Positions 2,387 to 21,191 of a stretch of DNA of 22,376 bases are shown here, piece by piece; the first letter of the stretch is position 1; each line of letters begins with the position of its first letter. The translations under genes and the position numbers were made by a program. Below the pieces are notes generated by a model, which saw only the letters and a list, made by a program, of their open reading frames with translations, was not told the DNA's origin and did no database searches. This DNA is from a virus. Where the stretch lies: UHGV virus genome UHGV-0378502, one strand, 5' to 3'.

Positions 2387-2795
2387 ACACATCCGCATGG
2401 CGATGAATGCCTGGGCGCATCCGGACGGCGAAAAAGTACCGGCTGCGAAAATTACCAAAGCGTATTTCGAGCTGGGAATGACGTTCCCGGAACTGTATGA
2501 CGACAGCCATCCGGAAGCCCTGGCTCGCAATACCCAGAAAATTTTCCGCTGGGTAGAGAAAGACACCCCTGATGCAGTTGAAAAAATTCAGGCGTTGTTA
2601 CCAGCGATCGAAAAGGCAATGCCACCTTTGCTGGTGGCCAGAATGCGCAGCCACAGTTCAGCTTATTTTCGGGAGCTGGTGGAGACGCGGGAGCGACTGG
2701 TGAGAGACGCTGATGATTTTGTCGCAGTGGCAATCGCCGGTTTCAATCAGATGAACCGTGGTGGCCCGGCAGGAAATGCTGTGGCAGTACATTGA
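2370..2795 (+). CDS. YdaT-like / CII-like regulatory protein
   Basis: ATG at 2370 preceded by AGGAGGG (2358-2364); 141 aa beginning MKIKHEHIRMAMNAW, which I recall as characteristic of YdaT-family proteins encoded next to YdaS-type Cro in Rac-like prophages. Family assignment from memory. Confidence 0.6.
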   Translation: MKIKHEHIRMAMNAWAHPDGEKVPAAKITKAYFELGMTFPELYDDSHPEALARNTQKIFRWVEKDTPDAVEKIQALLPAIEKAMPPLLVARMRSHSSAYFRELVETRERLVRDADDFVAVAIAGFNQMNRGGPAGNAVAVH

Positions 2796-2866
2796 CTGAC
2801 AATAGCCATATCGAATCGCTTCCGGCAACTCGTGAGTAAAAAGATTCGGTATCAGAAGAGGTGAGT

Positions 2867-3937
2867 ATGGCTAACGCCTGGCTCAGATTATGGCATGACA
2901 TGCCAAATGACCCTAAGTGGCGAACAATTGCCAGGGTGTCAGGGCAGCCAATTGCAACAGTGATGGCAGTGTATATCCACCTCCTGGTGAGCGCGTCACG
3001 AAATGTCACGCGAGGTCACATTGATGTCACGACAGAAGATTTGGCAAGTGCGCTCGACGTGACAGAAGAGGTAATTGATTCAATTTTGCAGACGATGCAG
3101 GGGCGGGTACTTGATGGTGATTTAATCACTGGATGGGAAAAACGCCAGGTGCTGAAAGAGGACAACGGCAATATTTTGCAAACCGCAAAATCTCCGGCAG
3201 AGCGCAAGAGGGCGCAGCGAGAGAGGGAAAGAAAGCGGGAACAAAATGGCGATTGTCACGGCGAGTCACGAAATGTCACGCACATGTCACGACGAGTCAC
3301 GACAGATAAAGATACAGATAAAGATACAGATCAAGAAGATCAAAACACTATGGTCCATGGCGTAAAAAACGCCACGAACCAGGCAGGGGATGTTCAGACC
3401 GTCACTCCTGGCCAGCCCGCAGGCACGACACCGGAAGCCGATTCAGCGTATGCGCTGAAAGCCGATTCGGGCGCTGTGCAGCAGGTGATGACCGCAAGGC
3501 AGGAGCAATCACACCAACTTCAGCAGCCTGAAGCCGATTCCGCCATTCAGCGGGAAGCCGATCGGGTAGTCCCGGAAAACACCGGGCAGCCTGTGGGACG
3601 AGTGGATTATCCTGATGTGTTCGAACAGGTCTGGCGGGAATACCCGTTGCGTGCCGGGGCAAACCCGAAGAAATCCGCTTTCAGTGCCTGGAAAGCCAGA
3701 TTACGCGAGGGGGTGCCACCAGAGGCCATGCTGGATGGCGTGAGGCGTTACGCAAGATACCTTGCGGCTACCGGGAAAACGGGAACGGAATTTGTTCAGC
3801 GAGCGACGACGTTTTTTGGACCGGACCGGAATTTTGAAAACCCCTGGCTGCTCCCGGTAAGCGGCACGAACAACCAGCGTTGTGTGAATCATATTTCTGA
3901 ACCGGATAACGAAATTCCGCCGGGCTTCAGGGGGTAA
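2867..3937 (+). CDS. Phage replication initiator (replisome-organizer / O-like protein) containing internal iterons
   Basis: ATG 2867 with GAGG upstream. The N-terminus (MANAWLRLWHDMPNDPKWRTIAR...) resembles the phage replisome-organizer N-terminal domain; an acidic low-complexity linker (DKDTDKDTDQEDQ) separates it from a C-terminal domain; position is immediately downstream of the cro/cII-like genes. Family assignment from memory. Confidence 0.75.
   Translation: MANAWLRLWHDMPNDPKWRTIARVSGQPIATVMAVYIHLLVSASRNVTRGHIDVTTEDLASALDVTEEVIDSILQTMQGRVLDGDLITGWEKRQVLKEDNGNILQTAKSPAERKRAQRERERKREQNGDCHGESRNVTHMSRRVTTDKDTDKDTDQEDQNTMVHGVKNATNQAGDVQTVTPGQPAGTTPEADSAYALKADSGAVQQVMTARQEQSHQLQQPEADSAIQREADRVVPENTGQPVGRVDYPDVFEQVWREYPLRAGANPKKSAFSAWKARLREGVPPEAMLDGVRRYARYLAATGKTGTEFVQRATTFFGPDRNFENPWLLPVSGTNNQRCVNHISEPDNEIPPGFRG
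2995..3031 (+). repeat. Iteron cluster 1 inside the initiator gene (4 x GTCACG at about 10-bp phasing)
   Basis: GTCACG/GTCACA at 2995, 3005, 3015 and 3026 (spacing 10, 10, 11), with an inverted CGTGAC copy near 3058. Confidence 0.7.
3255..3345 (+). repeat. Iteron cluster 2 (5 x GTCACG at helical phasing) plus adjacent AT-rich tandem repeat; candidate origin of replication
   Basis: GTCACG at 3255, 3265, 3275, 3286 and 3296 (spacing 10, 10, 11, 10), followed by gataaagataca x2 and an A-rich stretch (3302-3345). The arrangement is analogous to ori-lambda lying inside gene O. Confidence 0.65.
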
Positions 3938-3977
3938 GTGTTAATTTCTGGTCATGAGGTAATTTTCAGGAGGGCTT

Positions 3978-5922: not shown

Positions 5923-6180
5923 ATACAGCGAACGCCATTGGTTTAGTTGGATATTTACTGTGCCGGACAAAAACGGTTTGCGGGGAAATCTTAGTTAAGT
6001 AGAATGACTGCGGGTGCTTGAGGCTATCTGTCTCAGGCATGAACACCAAAAGGCAGATAGAGAAAAGCCCCAGTTAACATTACGCGTCCTGCAAGACGCT
6101 TAACATTAATCTGAGGCCATATCTATGCGACACATAGAGATTAGCCTCTTACGGACCGAAAGGTCAAGGAGAAGCAGGCT

Positions 6181-6336
6181 ATGAAGCAGCAAAAGGCGAT
6201 GTTAATCGCCCTGATCGTCATCTGTTTAACCGTCATAGTGACGGCACTGGTAACGAGGAAAGACCTCTGCGAGGTACGAATCCGAACCGGCCAGACGGAG
6301 GTCGCTGTCTTCACAGCTTACGAACCTGAGGAGTAA
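6181..6336 (+). CDS. hokD: Hok-family type I toxin (HokD/RelF-like, 51 aa)
   Basis: Product MKQQKAMLIALIVICLTVIVTALVTRKDLCEVRIRTGQTEVAVFTAYEPEE matches my recollection of HokD/RelF; long structured leader upstream and a GC hairpin plus T-run downstream, as expected for hok mRNAs. Confidence 0.85.
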   Translation: MKQQKAMLIALIVICLTVIVTALVTRKDLCEVRIRTGQTEVAVFTAYEPEE

Positions 6337-10431: not shown

Positions 10432-10507
10432 GGCCCTTTAGCTCAGTGGTGAGAGCGAGCGACTCATAATCGCCAGGTCGCTGGTTCAAATCCAGCAAGG
10501 GCCACCA
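10432..10507 (+). tRNA. tRNA with CAT anticodon (Ile2/lysidine-type or Met)
   Basis: Manual cloverleaf: acceptor GGCCCTT/AAGGGCC, D-arm GCTC-AGTGGTGA-GAGC, anticodon stem AGCGA/TCGCC with loop CTCATAA, T-arm GCTGG-TTCAAAT-CCAGC, discriminator A, encoded CCA. Resembles the ileZ-type tRNA I recall from Stx-converting phages. Confidence 0.8.
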
Positions 10508-10514
10508 TCACATA

Positions 10515-10591
10515 CCGCCATTAGCTCATCGGCAGAGAGCGTCAGCTTTCGAAACTGGCTGTGTGGGGCTCGGGTCCCCGATGGCAATCCA
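10515..10591 (+). tRNA. tRNA-Arg(TCG)-like gene, possibly degenerate
   Basis: D-arm TAGCTCA ... GAGC and an anticodon loop TTTCGAA (anticodon TCG) are recognisable and a CCA is present at 10589-10591, but in my manual fold the first two acceptor pairs and one anticodon-stem pair are mismatched and the T-loop is atypical. Boundaries are approximate. Confidence 0.45.
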
Positions 10592-10604
10592 TTATCTGCA
10601 TTAT

Positions 10605-10681
10605 GCGTTGTTAGCTCAGCCGGACAGAGCAATTGCCTTCTAAGCAATCGGTCACTGGTTCGAATCCAGTACAACGCGCCA
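10605..10681 (+). tRNA. tRNA-Arg (anticodon TCT, reads AGA/AGG)
   Basis: Manual cloverleaf with perfect acceptor stem GCGTTGT/ACAACGC, D-arm GCTC ... GAGC, anticodon stem ATTGC/GCAAT with loop CTTCTAA, T-arm ACTGG-TTCGAAT-CCAGT, discriminator G, encoded CCA. Confidence 0.85.
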
Positions 10682-11077: not shown

Positions 11078-11165
11078 CATCACACAAAAGGCATCTGCGG
11101 GTGCCTTTGACGGGGTGTTTTTTTACGGGTCGCTGGTGGCCCTTTTTTTATTTTCAGGAGGAAGT

Positions 11166-11558
11166 ATGTCTGAACCCTTATCCGGTTCCGGCACGGCTGC
11201 GGCGCTGGGTGGCGCGACGGTATTCGGGCTGTTTACCGGGATGGATTTCGGGATTGTGTTTGGCGCGTTCGCCGGGGCGTTATTTGTGGCAACGATGCCG
11301 CAGTCACTTTCAGTCTGGCGCGTGGTGGCGCATTTTCTGGTGTCGTTTATTGTCGGCGTGCTGGGAGCGCGTGTGCTGTCAGCCTGGATTGCATCAAAAA
11401 CAGGGTATGACGGTACATCAGCAGATGCGCTTTGCGCGGTGCTGGTCTCGGTGGTGTCGGTGAAGATTCTCTCGTTCATCCACCAGCAGGATATTGCATC
11501 GCTGGTGTCCGGTGTGTTCTCCCGCCTGCGGGGTGGAGGAGGCGGCAATGTTAAGTAA
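11166..11558 (+). CDS. Putative holin (130 aa, multiple TM segments, charged C-terminus)
   Basis: ATG 11166 with AGGAGGAAG RBS; three to four predicted TM helices and a Gly-rich basic C-terminus; first gene of a lysis cassette followed by an endolysin. Not lambda S-like. Confidence 0.6.
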   Translation: MSEPLSGSGTAAALGGATVFGLFTGMDFGIVFGAFAGALFVATMPQSLSVWRVVAHFLVSFIVGVLGARVLSAWIASKTGYDGTSADALCAVLVSVVSVKILSFIHQQDIASLVSGVFSRLRGGGGGNVK

Positions 11559-12203: not shown

Positions 12204-12210
12204 GTAAAAC

Positions 12211-12250
12211 AAAACCCCGGCTGGGGGAACAGTCCGGGGTTTTTAGTTTT
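12211..12250 (+). terminator. Intrinsic terminator after the endolysin gene
   Basis: CCCCGG ... CCGGGG stem (12215-12239) followed by TTTTTAGTTTT. Confidence 0.6.
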
Positions 12251-12335
12251 CACGTCAAAGGGGAAATTGTGATTAGTGAGTACGGAGAAAATCCTCGTGG
12301 GAAAGTATAAAAGATTCTTTTTGAGGTTGTCCATT

Positions 12336-12449
12336 ATGAAAGGTATTGAAATGGAAACTCCCGCGAGCCTTGATTTGACAAGGGCTGCGGCCTTTGCAAT
12401 TCGCCTTGTGGCGGTCGCTGTTCTGATTTGGGCTGTGCGTTGGTGGTGA
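12336..12449 (+). CDS. Tiny C-terminally anchored membrane peptide (37 aa)
   Basis: ATG 12336 with GAGG upstream; product MKGIEMETPASLDLTRAAAFAIRLVAVAVLIWAVRWW; stop separated by 1 nt from the next ATG. Below the track cut-off; found by reading the sequence. Confidence 0.35.
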   Translation: MKGIEMETPASLDLTRAAAFAIRLVAVAVLIWAVRWW

Positions 12450-12450
12450 T

Positions 12451-12633
12451 ATGGCGCGAAAACACTGGACACACAGAATGCCGCGAACGGCGGTGAAACG
12501 GGCACTGGTAGCGATACTGGTGCCTTTTTTATTGGTGGGGTGCGTCAGCCTGGATAAGGCGCGCCAGCTTTTCGATACCGCGTCTCAGGTCTGTGAAATT
12601 GTCGACGGTGTTCGGCAGTGTCTGCAGAACTGA
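12451..12633 (+). CDS. Mini-lipoprotein (lipobox LLVGC; mature part about 30 aa with three Cys)
   Basis: Signal peptide with basic n-region, hydrophobic core and lipobox L-V-G-C (MPRTAVKRALVAILVPFLLVGC if started at the internal ATG 12478); mature peptide CVSLDKARQLFDTASQVCEIVDGVRQCLQN. Confidence 0.5.
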   Translation: MARKHWTHRMPRTAVKRALVAILVPFLLVGCVSLDKARQLFDTASQVCEIVDGVRQCLQN

Positions 12634-12804
12634 TCGCCTGTAAGAGCAGAATATTTTGCTGAAAAATGAAGGATTCGCCAGCGTCCGGTAAGCATGAAAT
12701 TCTGTGTTTGTGGCTACTCAATAAAATAAATTCTTTCTGTCGCCGCGAATACTCAAATGTTGATCAGTGCCCGGTGCGGCGACGGGCTTCGATATCAGGA
12801 GACG

Positions 12805-13200
12805 ATGATGGAAAAAACAGAAAACAAACCGATTGTAATTGGTGCTGATGCTGCTCCGTTTAAGTTTGAGTTGTCTCAACTGGTGGAGATGCGTATCAGT
12901 GATGAATGGGGTGAGGTTAAAGCCCGCGCGCAGTATGCGGATGGCGAAAACCAGTACTTGATCCACTACAAAGCAGCTGATGGTCGCGCCACGACGGAGT
13001 GGTTTGGTGAGTCAATGCTGGAAGCAACAGAAGATGATCGTCATCCGGGTTGTCCGGTATTTGCCGGTATGAAATTACCGGAAGGTGCAGTTGAACTGCA
13101 GCCGGGTGAGGTGTTCGTAATGACAGACATCATTGATGGTAAACCGCAGTATTCGCGTATTGAAATGAATAGTAAGAGTGCTCGCCTGATTCGTGAGTAA
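12805..13200 (+). CDS. Hypothetical protein (about 131 aa) immediately upstream of cos
   Basis: ATGATG at 12805/12808 with AGGAGA upstream; protein-like soluble product; no recognisable family. The track ORF begins earlier at 12757. Confidence 0.55.
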   Translation: MMEKTENKPIVIGADAAPFKFELSQLVEMRISDEWGEVKARAQYADGENQYLIHYKAADGRATTEWFGESMLEATEDDRHPGCPVFAGMKLPEGAVELQPGEVFVMTDIIDGKPQYSRIEMNSKSARLIRE

Positions 13201-19728: not shown

Positions 19729-20754
19729 ATGTCGATGTACACAACCGCCCAGCTGCTGGCGGCAAATGAGAAGAAATTTAAGTTTGATCCGCTGTTTCTG
19801 CGTCTCTTTTTCCGTGAGAGCTATCCCTTCACCACGGAGAAAGTCTATCTCTCACAAATTCCGGGACTGGTAAACATGGCGCTGTACGTTTCGCCGATTG
19901 TTTCCGGTGAGGTTATCCGTTCCCGTGGCGGCTCCACCTCTGAATTTACGCCGGGATATGTCAAACCCAAGCATGAGGTGAATCCGCAGATGACCCTGCG
20001 TCGCCTGCCGGATGAAGATCCGCAGAATCTGGCGGACCCGGCTTACCGCCGCCGTCGCATCATCATGCAGAACATGCGAGACGAAGAGCTGGCCATTGCT
20101 CAGGTCGAAGAGATGCAGGCAGTTTCTGCTGTGCTTAAGGGCAAATACACCATGACCGGTGAAGCCTTCGATCCGGTTGAGGTGGATATGGGCCGCAGTG
20201 CGGCGAACAACATCACACAGTCCGGTGGTACGGAGTGGAGCAAGCGTGACAAGTCCACGTATGACCCGACCGACGATATCGAAGCCTATGCGCTGAACGC
20301 CAGCGGAGTGGTGAATATCATCGTGTTTGATCCGAAAGGCTGGGCGCTGTTCCGTTCCTTCAAAGCCGTCAAGGAGAAGCTGGATACCCGTCGCGGCTCT
20401 AATTCCGAGCTGGAGACAGCGGTAAAAGACCTGGGCGAAGCGGTGTCCTATAAGGGGATGTATGGCGATACGGCGATCGTCGTGTATTCCGGACAGTACG
20501 TGGAAAACGACGTCAAAAAGAACTTCCTGCCGGACAACACGATGGTGCTGGGGAACACTCAGGCACGCGGTCTGCGCACCTATGGCTGCATTCAGGATGC
20601 GGACGCACAGCGCGAAGGTATTAACGCCTCTGCCCGCTACCCGAAAAACTGGGTGACCACCGGCGATCCGGCGCGTGAGTTCACCATGATTCAGTCAGCA
20701 CCGCTGATGCTGCTGGCTGACCCTGATGCGTTCGTGTCCGTACAACTGGCGTAA
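19729..20754 (+). CDS. E: Major capsid protein E
   Basis: 341 aa from ATG 19729, MSMYTTAQLLAANEKKFKFDPLFLRLFFRESYPFTTEKVYLSQIPGLVNMALYVSPIVSGEVIRSRGG ..., near-identical to my recollection of lambda gpE. Confidence 0.95.
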   Translation: MSMYTTAQLLAANEKKFKFDPLFLRLFFRESYPFTTEKVYLSQIPGLVNMALYVSPIVSGEVIRSRGGSTSEFTPGYVKPKHEVNPQMTLRRLPDEDPQNLADPAYRRRRIIMQNMRDEELAIAQVEEMQAVSAVLKGKYTMTGEAFDPVEVDMGRSAANNITQSGGTEWSKRDKSTYDPTDDIEAYALNASGVVNIIVFDPKGWALFRSFKAVKEKLDTRRGSNSELETAVKDLGEAVSYKGMYGDTAIVVYSGQYVENDVKKNFLPDNTMVLGNTQARGLRTYGCIQDADAQREGINASARYPKNWVTTGDPAREFTMIQSAPLMLLADPDAFVSVQLA

Positions 20755-20795
20755 TCATGGCCCTTCGGGGCCATTTTCTCTCTGTGGAGGAGTCC

Positions 20796-21191
20796 ATGAC
20801 GAAAGATGAACTGATTGCCCGTCTTCAGGTGCTGGGTGAGCAACTGAACCGTGATGTCAGCCTGACGGGGACGAAAGAAGAACTGGTGCTCCGTGTGGCA
20901 GAGCTGGAAGAGGAGCTTGATGACACGGATGACGCTGCCGGTCAGGACACATCTGTCAGCCCGGAAAATGCGCTGACCGGACATGAAAATGAGGTTGTAT
21001 CAGCGCAGCCGGATACCGTGACTGATACGGCTGATCTGGTCACGGTTGTGGCACTGGTGACGCTGCATACTGATGCACTTCACGCCACGCGGGATGAGGC
21101 TGTGGCATTTGTGCTGCCGGGAACGGCGTTCCGTGTCTCTGCCGGTGTGTCAGCTGAAATGACAGAGCGCGGCCTGGCCAGAATGCAATAA
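20796..21191 (+). CDS. FI: Head assembly/packaging accessory protein FI
   Basis: 131 aa from ATG 20796 (GGAGGAG RBS), MTKDELIARLQVLGEQLNRDVSLTGTKEEL ..., matching lambda gpFI with a few substitutions. Confidence 0.9.
   Translation: MTKDELIARLQVLGEQLNRDVSLTGTKEELVLRVAELEEELDDTDDAAGQDTSVSPENALTGHENEVVSAQPDTVTDTADLVTVVALVTLHTDALHATRDEAVAFVLPGTAFRVSAGVSAEMTERGLARMQ

Follow-up and report, generated by a model that had tools for sequence, protein, structure and literature searches.

A minimal lipoprotein that replaces spanin pairs in lambdoid prophage lysis cassettes is a candidate outer-membrane disruptor

Introduction

Spanins are thought to physically link and fuse both membranes of the host during phage lysis. 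Among the closest described systems are the pairs of one inner-membrane spanin (i-spanin) with one outer-membrane spanin (o-spanin) of phages lambda (Rz/Rz1) and P2 (LysB/LysC). Here we analyse computationally a mini-lipoprotein gene and the tiny open reading frame (ORF) next to it, ORF1, in the lysis cassette of the virus genome UHGV-0378502. This stretch of 22,376 nucleotides (nt), hereafter the window, is a phiP27-like lambdoid prophage of Escherichia coli. Like Rz/Rz1 and LysB/LysC, the lipoprotein occupies the spanin slot of the cassette, carries a predicted outer-membrane lipoprotein signal and periplasmic cysteines, and is exchanged for such pairs between identical flanks. Unlike them, it comes without an i-spanin, its mature part has 30 amino acids (aa) rather than about 40–90, and it is proline-free rather than proline-rich and predicted to be helical. 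In a profile comparison of the lipoprotein with Rz1 (hhalign), the similarity ended at the signal peptide and the probability was 15%.

Small proteins that act on the envelope without a partner provide a second set of comparisons. Colicin lysis proteins are very small enterobacterial lipoproteins that permeabilise the envelope; their mature parts have about 28–33 residues, their genes are operon-distal behind a terminator, and their conserved, stable signal peptides are a precedent for signal peptides that are themselves functional. They lack the two extra cysteines of the lipoprotein studied here, which resembles them only in size, lipidation and operon position. Because it had no match to PF02402 (Lysis_col) at E up to 1, we rejected assignment to the colicin lysis or bacteriocin release proteins. 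The unimolecular spanin gp11 of phage T1 likewise uses a single gene for the outer-membrane step and has an N-terminal lipoprotein signal, but it also has a C-terminal transmembrane (TM) domain and a periplasm-spanning length (PMC6139136). In the lipoprotein the C-terminus (...CEIVDGVRQCLQN) is hydrophilic and the signal peptide is the sole hydrophobic segment; with no C-terminal TM segment, it does not belong among the unimolecular spanins. The disruptin gp28 of phage phiKT (bioRxiv 10.1101/515445) is also a small single protein that replaces spanins in a spanin-less cassette. It is soluble, cationic and antimicrobial-peptide-like, whereas the lipoprotein is predicted to be lipid-anchored, with a charge of −4 to +3 and moderate amphipathicity.

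The phiP27 copy of the lipoprotein has an earlier catalogue entry as a putative o-spanin, based solely on bioinformatics. Kongari et al. 2018 (PMC6139136; SpaninDB, Young laboratory) assigned phiP27 by bioinformatics to the 'separated' two-component spanins, as a singleton in both families and, at 62 periplasmic residues, as the shortest system in a catalogue whose combined periplasmic lengths run from 62 to 300 residues. Its o-spanin (phiP27 20706–20861) is given there as 51 aa with 30 periplasmic residues, predicted by Jpred to be 83% helical. We find that this protein and the window lipoprotein are 92% identical over the 60-residue precursor, and that their 30-residue mature parts are identical.

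A 30-residue mature lipoprotein under purifying selection

The original prediction, made from the letters of the window, described two tiny ORFs 1 nt apart, located past the endolysin and its terminator, the second of them encoding a lipoprotein with a mature part of about 30 residues and three cysteines. This anatomy is confirmed in every part: the ORF1 stop codon (TGA 12447–12449) is followed by a single T at 12450 and then by the start codon of the lipoprotein, both ORFs lie beyond the endolysin stop and the terminator hairpin (Table 1), and the 30 mature residues include C31, C48 and C57. The 60-codon ORF has a canonical lipobox, LVGC, which fits the pattern [LVI][ASTVI][GAS]C and makes Cys31 the predicted lipidated residue. 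Position +2 is Val and position +3 is Ser; with no Asp at +2, these residues predict sorting to the outer membrane.

Conservation also bears on the start codon. PGAP and Kongari et al. (PMC6139136), the latter for the phiP27 o-spanin, begin the protein at M10, but in homologues M10 is replaced by Thr, Ala, Val or Ile while residues 3–9 (RKHWTHR) are conserved, and on these grounds we place the true start at M1. The n-region of the signal peptide (M.RKHWTHR.PR..AK) is unusually long, basic and rich in His and Trp, and is conserved at the protein level.

Among PHROG families the lipoprotein falls into phrog_7528 (E 1.5e-35). In a collection of 5.8 billion proteins it is represented by 136 clusters from Enterobacteriaceae, those with a name coming from Escherichia, Salmonella, Citrobacter and Cronobacter. 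When 1.84 billion representative proteins were searched exhaustively with a profile, no more than 23 relatives emerged, which added only a second subfamily (...EKARNWFGVAADVCDTVKKIKDRCNDRK), and there was no link to any known family; a scan of representative genomes found the gene in only three species representatives. All three cysteines are invariant in a 23-sequence alignment, in which a mature length of 30–32 residues is typical, and a homologue in Lelliottia retains 58% protein identity. The gene is under purifying selection, with a ratio of non-synonymous to synonymous change (dN/dS) of 0.18 overall and 0.13 in the mature part (NG86, 38 unique genes).

These values bear on the possibility that the ORF is a non-functional remnant of recombination in the spanin region. 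The linker on its right is itself the remnant of an o-spanin gene, and a decayed copy of the lipoprotein exists in the Shiga toxin (Stx) phage GER2. Such a remnant is hardly credible for the gene as a whole, given its dN/dS, its three invariant cysteines and its intact state in 170 loci, which span five genera, four cassette types and two subfamilies down to 58% identity.

Proline is absent from the mature peptide, whose net charge is −1, +3 or −4, depending on the subfamily. It is moderately amphipathic, with a hydrophobic moment (muH) of 0.42 that 7% of shuffled sequences matched. The two invariant cysteines of the C-terminal part, 9–10 residues apart, would lie on opposite faces of any continuous helix, and may therefore form either a C-terminal disulfide loop or intermolecular bonds.

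Family searches were uninformative for both ORFs: there was no match in Pfam or PADLOC at E up to 1 or in NCBIfam, PHROGs returned only families of unknown function, and a sequence search of the Protein Data Bank gave no meaningful match. On the PADLOC result we assigned neither ORF to an anti-phage defence system.

The lipoprotein replaces spanin pairs

We collected related loci in two scans of IMG/VR, the second seeded with the distant subfamily; the resulting counts cover many near-identical E. coli prophages, and some contigs occur in both scans. The lipoprotein follows the endolysin, with or without intervening ORF1-type peptides, in all 72 first-scan loci with enough upstream sequence, in nearly all of the roughly 70 second-scan loci, and in every locus with an identifiable endolysin. 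Four types of cassette carry it: two holin-like genes (holin8 and holin3_7) with an M15 endolysin, the same holins with a GH108 muramidase in its stead, a lambda-S-like holin with GH108 (in Lelliottia), and an S-like holin with M15. Holin-like gene 1 lies 5′ of the lipoprotein in nearly all related loci. The lipoprotein also lies before several unrelated terminase and virion modules, and its retention across these differing modules indicates that it travels with the lysis genes.

A direct exchange is seen in E. coli RM9088. Its flanks are those of the window: two holins, an M15 endolysin and a 100% identical terminator on the left, and the linker GCAGAATATTTTGCTGAAAAATGA and the downstream gene on the right. 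Between them, RM9088 has a 45-aa tail-anchored peptide ending in IRWW (phrog_6632), a TGAtATG junction and an overlapping pair of i-spanin (phrog_214, E 3e-24) and o-spanin (phrog_456, E 7e-27; 'Rz1-like LysC' in PGAP). The linker, non-coding in the window, is in RM9088 the 3′ end of this LysC-like o-spanin gene, whose last residues are AEYLAEK*, and it is also found 3′ of the R lysozyme in GER2, O157 and strain 1EC213. The terminator marks the left boundary of the exchangeable module; in GER2 and O157 its stem is retained and its loop differs. The linker, at the right boundary, looks like a recombination joint for the exchange of lysis modules.

Lipoprotein and spanin pairs do not occur together in intact form. 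Of 180 loci, 170 carry the lipoprotein intact, 6 carry a spanin pair and none carries both, spanins being sought with four spanin types and a lipobox scan rather than with an all-purpose spanin finder. GER2 has Rz/Rz1, and its copy of the lipoprotein is a pseudogene, disrupted by one frameshift and three nonsense codons, in front of which a remnant of the GTGGTGAtATG junction survives. The lipobox scan revealed no second lipobox ORF within −3.5/+2.5 kilobases (kb) of any cassette, and no other spanin candidate was found in the complete phiP27 genome.

The lipoprotein thus has the marks of an o-spanin in its signal peptidase II signal and lipobox and in its location in the lysis cassette directly downstream of the endolysin. 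It departs from one in length, with only 29 residues after the lipidated cysteine and no partner domain to bridge the periplasm. No i-spanin candidate for it turned up, whether in the window, across the phiP27 genome or, for related loci, within −3.5/+2.5 kb. The catalogued phiP27 'i-spanin' (20348–20542; 3761–3955 in our locus L001) is a 64-aa ORF with a TTG start that occurs in none of the other loci, has no PHROG family match and is antisense to a 90-aa ORF matching phrog_36812 over its full length (E 5e-20). For these reasons the call is probably an artefact, which would leave the lipoprotein an orphan; the catalogue minimum of 62 residues also arises from counting this doubtful i-spanin.

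A genuine o-spanin could nevertheless bridge and fuse the membranes with an inner-membrane partner that we do not recognise, be it one of the 'holin' proteins, a host protein or the product of a distant phage gene. The spanin slot and the conserved periplasmic cysteines, as in Rz1, fit this idea, as does the filing of the protein as an o-spanin by Kongari et al., who describe periplasmic cysteines as a recurrent spanin feature (PMC6139136), and with two holin-family genes in the cassette, one of them could serve another purpose. However, a lone lambda-S-like holin takes the place of the holin8 and holin3_7 pair in the Lelliottia and L099-type cassettes, the proposed phiP27 partner is peculiar to that phage, and with 30 residues on the lipoprotein almost all of the periplasm would be left for the partner to span. 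The various contexts share no phage membrane protein, and this, together with a peptide too short to reach the inner membrane, favours action without a dedicated partner. We therefore regard an unrecognised partner as unlikely.

Position and linkage also bear on whether the gene has a role outside lysis, as a late or lysogen-expressed accessory lipoprotein acting in superinfection exclusion or receptor masking, in lysis timing or in lysogenic conversion. Small phage lipoproteins with such roles include T5 Llp, Cor and Bor, accessory genes frequently occupy the stretch between the lysis and packaging genes, and relatives have toxin genes and a KilA-N gene inserted nearby. The original prediction had offered an exclusion lipoprotein as an alternative, but there is no match to such a family (Cor, T5 Llp) or to any other in Pfam, NCBIfam or PADLOC. 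The lipoprotein is linked to lysis modules rather than to tail or receptor modules, co-varying with lysis cassettes across differing terminases and virion modules, and it is exchanged precisely for a spanin pair and decayed where Rz/Rz1 is present. In many relatives it is operonic with the endolysin, with gaps of 6–14 nt or a 4-nt overlap that leave no room for a promoter. In addition, the terminator-like hairpin within the gene (see below) would plausibly halt readthrough expression unless the polymerase is antiterminated or the message is translated, and would thereby block such expression in a lysogen. An accessory role is improbable on this evidence.

ORF1 is a separable module

The C-terminal hydrophobic segment that had been described for ORF1 is accurate: the product is a tail-anchored peptide ending in RWW. 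It matches phrog_4493 (E 9e-24), and has no lipobox. Of the differences between ORF1 and its homologue in GER2, 19.5 are synonymous and 5.5 non-synonymous but conservative (pS 0.72, pN 0.065; pN/pS 0.09). Four of the other five frames of the region gave ratios of 1.2–3.4, and the antisense frame whose third codon positions coincide with those of ORF1 gave 0.19. ORF1 is a real gene under purifying selection. A tblastn search with it against a phage collection gave no match, probably owing to the shortness and low complexity of the query.

The start of ORF1 is ambiguous. From ATG 12336 the product has 37 aa; from GTG 12297 it has 50 aa and begins with a basic, amphipathic stretch (MGKYKRFFLRLSIMKG...). 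Each start has a Shine–Dalgarno sequence (Table 1). Both starts and their Shine–Dalgarno sequences are conserved in GER2 (upstream GTG) and in a Cronobacter paralogue (upstream ATG after AAGGAG), and the 50-aa form covers positions 1–54 of the 56 in phrog_4493. A dual start is possible, and the two in-frame starts recall the dual-start motifs of holin/antiholin genes.

The original prediction had suggested that the two genes might make up a miniature two-component spanin, with a caveat that their sizes and topologies do not match known Rz/Rz1. The mismatch was borne out by the absence of a Pfam Rz/Rz1 match, by the proline-free lipoprotein and by the C-terminal position of the ORF1 TM segment. 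The half of the proposal that places the lipoprotein at the outer-membrane step of the lysis cassette is supported by synteny, by the swap and by its exclusivity with spanin pairs; the pairing itself is not. ORF1 stands directly before the lipoprotein in 46 of the 72 first-scan loci and is absent from the other 26, in 22 of which the lipoprotein starts 14 nt past the stop of the M15 endolysin. The second scan returned mostly arrangements without ORF1, with gaps of 6–14 nt, and in one locus the endolysin and lipoprotein genes share 4 nt. Both E. coli LY180 and phiP27 have the lipoprotein without ORF1.

Conversely, ORF1 is commoner elsewhere. The same leader, ORF1 and TGGTGGTGAtATG junction precede a classical Rz with embedded Rz1 in GER2, O157:H7 and others, and among 5,426 complete E. 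coli genomes the arrangement of ORF1 with Rz was found in 670 and that with the lipoprotein in 125. The junction CGTTGGTGGTGAtATG thus leads to the lipoprotein in the window, to Rz in GER2 and O157 and, after a similar peptide, to a LysB-like i-spanin in RM9088. ORF1 can therefore not be the i-spanin of the lipoprotein, being separable from it.

The adjacency of the genes, their 1-nt gap and their apparent translational coupling would suit a dedicated pair in which ORF1 is a C-terminally anchored i-spanin, and an inner-membrane protein with a C-terminal TM segment could in principle serve as one (Kongari et al., PMC6139136). Joint inheritance, however, is lacking, and the Rz that ORF1 more often precedes is full-size, with its own TM domain. 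ORF1 also has no long coiled-coil periplasmic domain, or indeed any periplasmic domain to speak of: it would expose at most about 16–29 residues on one side of the membrane, and given the basic N-terminus of the 50-aa form this part is predicted to be cytoplasmic. A miniature spanin pair is thus very unlikely, and largely refuted by co-occurrence. ORF1 instead forms a separate module of terminator, leader and RWW peptide, apparently translationally coupled to Rz, to a LysB-like i-spanin or to the lipoprotein.

ORF1-type peptides fall into phrog_4493, phrog_1115 and phrog_6632, none of which has an assigned function. P2 LysA, the 9NA-like holin/antiholin and LambdaSo Lcc6, a 65-aa transmembrane protein needed at the holin step, are likewise small inner-membrane proteins encoded between endolysin and spanin genes, although they share no homology with ORF1. 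From its position, ORF1 most likely acts at the inner membrane as an accessory factor in lysis or its timing. Lambdoid prophages also have arrays of two to four differing small single-transmembrane peptides (phrog_1115, phrog_4906, phrog_12997 and others) between the endolysin and the spanin or lipoprotein genes, as at 2519–3068 of locus L003, 3641–3996 of L095 and 1212–1560 of L097.

The ORF1 leader and the toxin alternative

The 35 nt 5′ of ATG 12336 show a single change between lineages in which the synonymous sites of ORF1 are 72% diverged. This block may encode the N-terminal extension of ORF1. The minus strand of the leader carries a promoter-like site facing the bidirectional terminator, from which an antisense transcript of about 85 nt, running from 12297 to 12212, might arise against the ORF1 leader. 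The site was the one promoter-like match in the region, fewer than expected from shuffled sequences (mean 3.0). An Rfam search at the site found no family and only weak, terminator-driven matches, and a study of small RNAs of E. coli O157 prophages (PMC4104026) does not cover the interval between endolysin and Rz.

These features bear on a toxin–antidote module, either an entericidin-like one, the other alternative in the original prediction, or a type I toxin–antitoxin system with ORF1 as a toxin repressed by the putative antisense RNA. ORF1 is of fitting size and hydrophobicity, the leader is far more conserved than its synonymous sites, and the promoter-like site (a 10/12 match) with the bidirectional terminator could yield the RNA. 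Yet this motif and the terminator are the whole of the RNA side, and the conservation of the leader is partly explained by coding for the 50-aa form. The entericidin version fails on other grounds: entericidin partners are both lipoproteins and ORF1 is not one, and neither ORF has a match to PF08085 (Entericidin) or, as for Lysis_col, any other Pfam family at E up to 1. ORF1 is, moreover, translationally coupled to lysis genes in three arrangements. We give a toxin module very little credence.

A conserved hairpin in the signal-peptide codons

The coding sequence of the signal peptide contains a terminator-like hairpin with an 11-base-pair stem, a GNRA loop and a run of six U residues. It is kept in 30 of 30 sequence variants: all stem substitutions retain a standard pair, even the non-synonymous L23P, which converts G·U to G-C, while the loop varies freely. 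The nucleotide sequence is nearly invariant even in the Lelliottia homologue. In comparison with the distant subfamily, synonymous change is suppressed in the hairpin codons relative to other codons for identical residues (p 0.001–0.015). A covariation test found no compensatory changes, 7 of the 11 pairs varying on one side only, and shuffles did not separate from the real sequence; support for the hairpin therefore comes from the suppression at synonymous sites and not from covariation. The hairpin probably explains why the hydrophobic core of the signal peptide (ALVAILVPFLLVGC) is better conserved than the mature peptide.

Genomic setting

The lysis region of the window is about 94% identical to that of the Stx2e phage phiP27, and positions 12210–12700 are 100% identical to E. 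coli strain SEC470. Coordinates are given in Table 1. Three tRNA genes lie just 5′ of the lysis cassette. At the equivalent position phiP27 has tRNAs and then stx2e; the window has a truncated TerB-like ORF and a DUF3927 small membrane protein at the toxin site instead. Between the lipoprotein and a Nu1-like small terminase gene is a conserved gene for a 131-aa soluble protein (phrog_1935, function unknown) that is shortened or missing in many relatives. A strong Rfam match to the sok antitoxin RNA indicates a hok/sok-type module in the early region of the prophage. One database record, NZ_CP026085.1 (4.83 Mb, labelled DH5alpha), has a cassette 100% identical to that of E. coli LY180, and its strain label is probably wrong.

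Table 1 Features of the lysis region and its surroundings in the window
Feature	Position	Strand	Basis or remark
sok antitoxin RNA match	6012–6183		Rfam RF01794, 106.7 bits
Three tRNA genes	10432–10681		Anticodons CAT, TCG, TCT
Holin-like gene 1, Phage_holin_8	11163–11558	+	Pfam PF16931, E 4.9e-23; ORF opens at GTG 11115; PGAP form 130 aa
Holin-like gene 2, Phage_holin_3_7, 91 aa	11548–11823	+	Pfam PF05449, E 1.2e-21; 11-nt overlap with gene 1
Endolysin, M15 L-alanyl-D-glutamate peptidase type, 125 aa	11826–12203	+	Pfam PF13539, E 7.5e-13
Bidirectional intrinsic-terminator-like hairpin	12211–12244	.	A-run, CCCCGG...CCGGGG stem (12215–12220/12234–12239), T-run (12240–12244); −21.5 kcal/mol, z −4.25; 3′ of endolysin stop (12203)
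Shine–Dalgarno GGAG, for GTG 12297	12284–12287	+	
ORF1, small tail-anchored inner-membrane peptide ending RWW	12297–12449 (GTG) or 12336–12449 (ATG)	+	phrog_4493
Sigma-70 promoter-like site TGGACA-18-TATACT	12304–12333	-	10/12 match
Shine–Dalgarno GAGG, for ATG 12336	12323–12326	+	
Junction CGTTGGTGGTGAtATG	12438–12453	+	ORF1 stop, 1 nt, next gene start
Mini-lipoprotein precursor, 60 aa	12451–12633	+	Starts at ATG 12451; lipobox LVGC; phrog_7528
Predicted signal peptide	12451–12540	+	
Terminator-like hairpin within signal-peptide codons 17–27	12500–12531	+	−18.4 kcal/mol, z −4.3
Predicted mature peptide	12541–12630	+	
Cys31 (predicted lipidated)	12541–12543	+	
Cys48	12592–12594	+	
Cys57	12619–12621	+	
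Linker GCAGAATATTTTGCTGAAAAATGA, right boundary of exchangeable module, non-coding in window	12646–12669	+	Sequence comparison
131-aa soluble protein	12805–13200		phrog_1935

Discussion

The anatomy of the lipoprotein, the selection on its gene, its position after endolysins, its swap with spanin pairs and its mutual exclusivity with them are direct observations. In our view they are best explained if the lipoprotein performs the outer-membrane step of lysis, replacing the i-/o-spanin pair with no dedicated phage inner-membrane partner, and if ORF1 is separate. We hold this reading with moderate confidence.

On this reading, the lipoprotein would be transcribed from the late operon, as its 6–14-nt gap to, or overlap with, the endolysin in many relatives suggests, and the terminators would presumably be read through by Q-modified polymerase. 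The LVGC lipobox with Val and Ser at +2 and +3 points to lipidation, cleavage by signal peptidase II and Lol sorting to the outer membrane, where the two invariant periplasmic cysteines may be oxidised. Once holin and endolysin have removed the wall, the lipoprotein would destabilise the outer membrane. By functional analogy, and without homology, it might act as colicin lysis proteins do, through the outer-membrane phospholipase A.

Several points weigh against this reading. Accessory ('moron') genes are classically found in the lysis–packaging interval. A mature part of 30 residues is too short to bridge the periplasm, and with no inner-membrane partner conserved the fusion mechanism of spanins is inapplicable as it stands. 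A cationic, antimicrobial-peptide-like mechanism was also dropped, since the net charge varies from −4 to +3 across subfamilies and muH is not exceptional. AlphaFold2 gave a single helix at low confidence (pLDDT 68), a weak model. With so many near-identical E. coli prophages among the loci, our counts overstate their independence. The SerU-LTIIb record has two holins and an endolysin, with neither spanin nor lipoprotein annotated. We found no experimental work on the lipoprotein in the literature searched, and in about 13% of phages that infect Gram-negative hosts no spanin can be recognised (PMC6139136), so that a missing spanin does not prove that the lipoprotein fills the role.

More tentatively, we propose a self-sufficient, 30-residue, disulfide-bearing and lipid-anchored disruptor that acts on the outer membrane from its inner leaflet with no bridge to the inner membrane, and RWW peptides as a general, so far unrecognised accessory component that many lambdoid and Stx prophages couple translationally to their genes for outer-membrane lysis. 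In about 12% of complete E. coli genomes, O157:H7 among them, the ORF1 gene, which has no assigned function, lies upstream of Rz. Our analysis also corrects a published catalogue entry, the i-spanin of phiP27 (PMC6139136).

Carriers of the lipoprotein gene include the Shiga-toxin phages phiP27 (Stx2e) and phiSTEC1575 (Stx2k) and prophages with subtilase or pertussis-like toxin genes beside the lysis cassette, and the gene may therefore bear on toxin release. If it functions in lysis, the lipoprotein would break open the outer membrane by another route, and a very compact one. It is a realistic candidate for disrupting that membrane without a partner and, should it prove self-sufficient, would be a third solution to the outer membrane, after spanins and the soluble disruptin.

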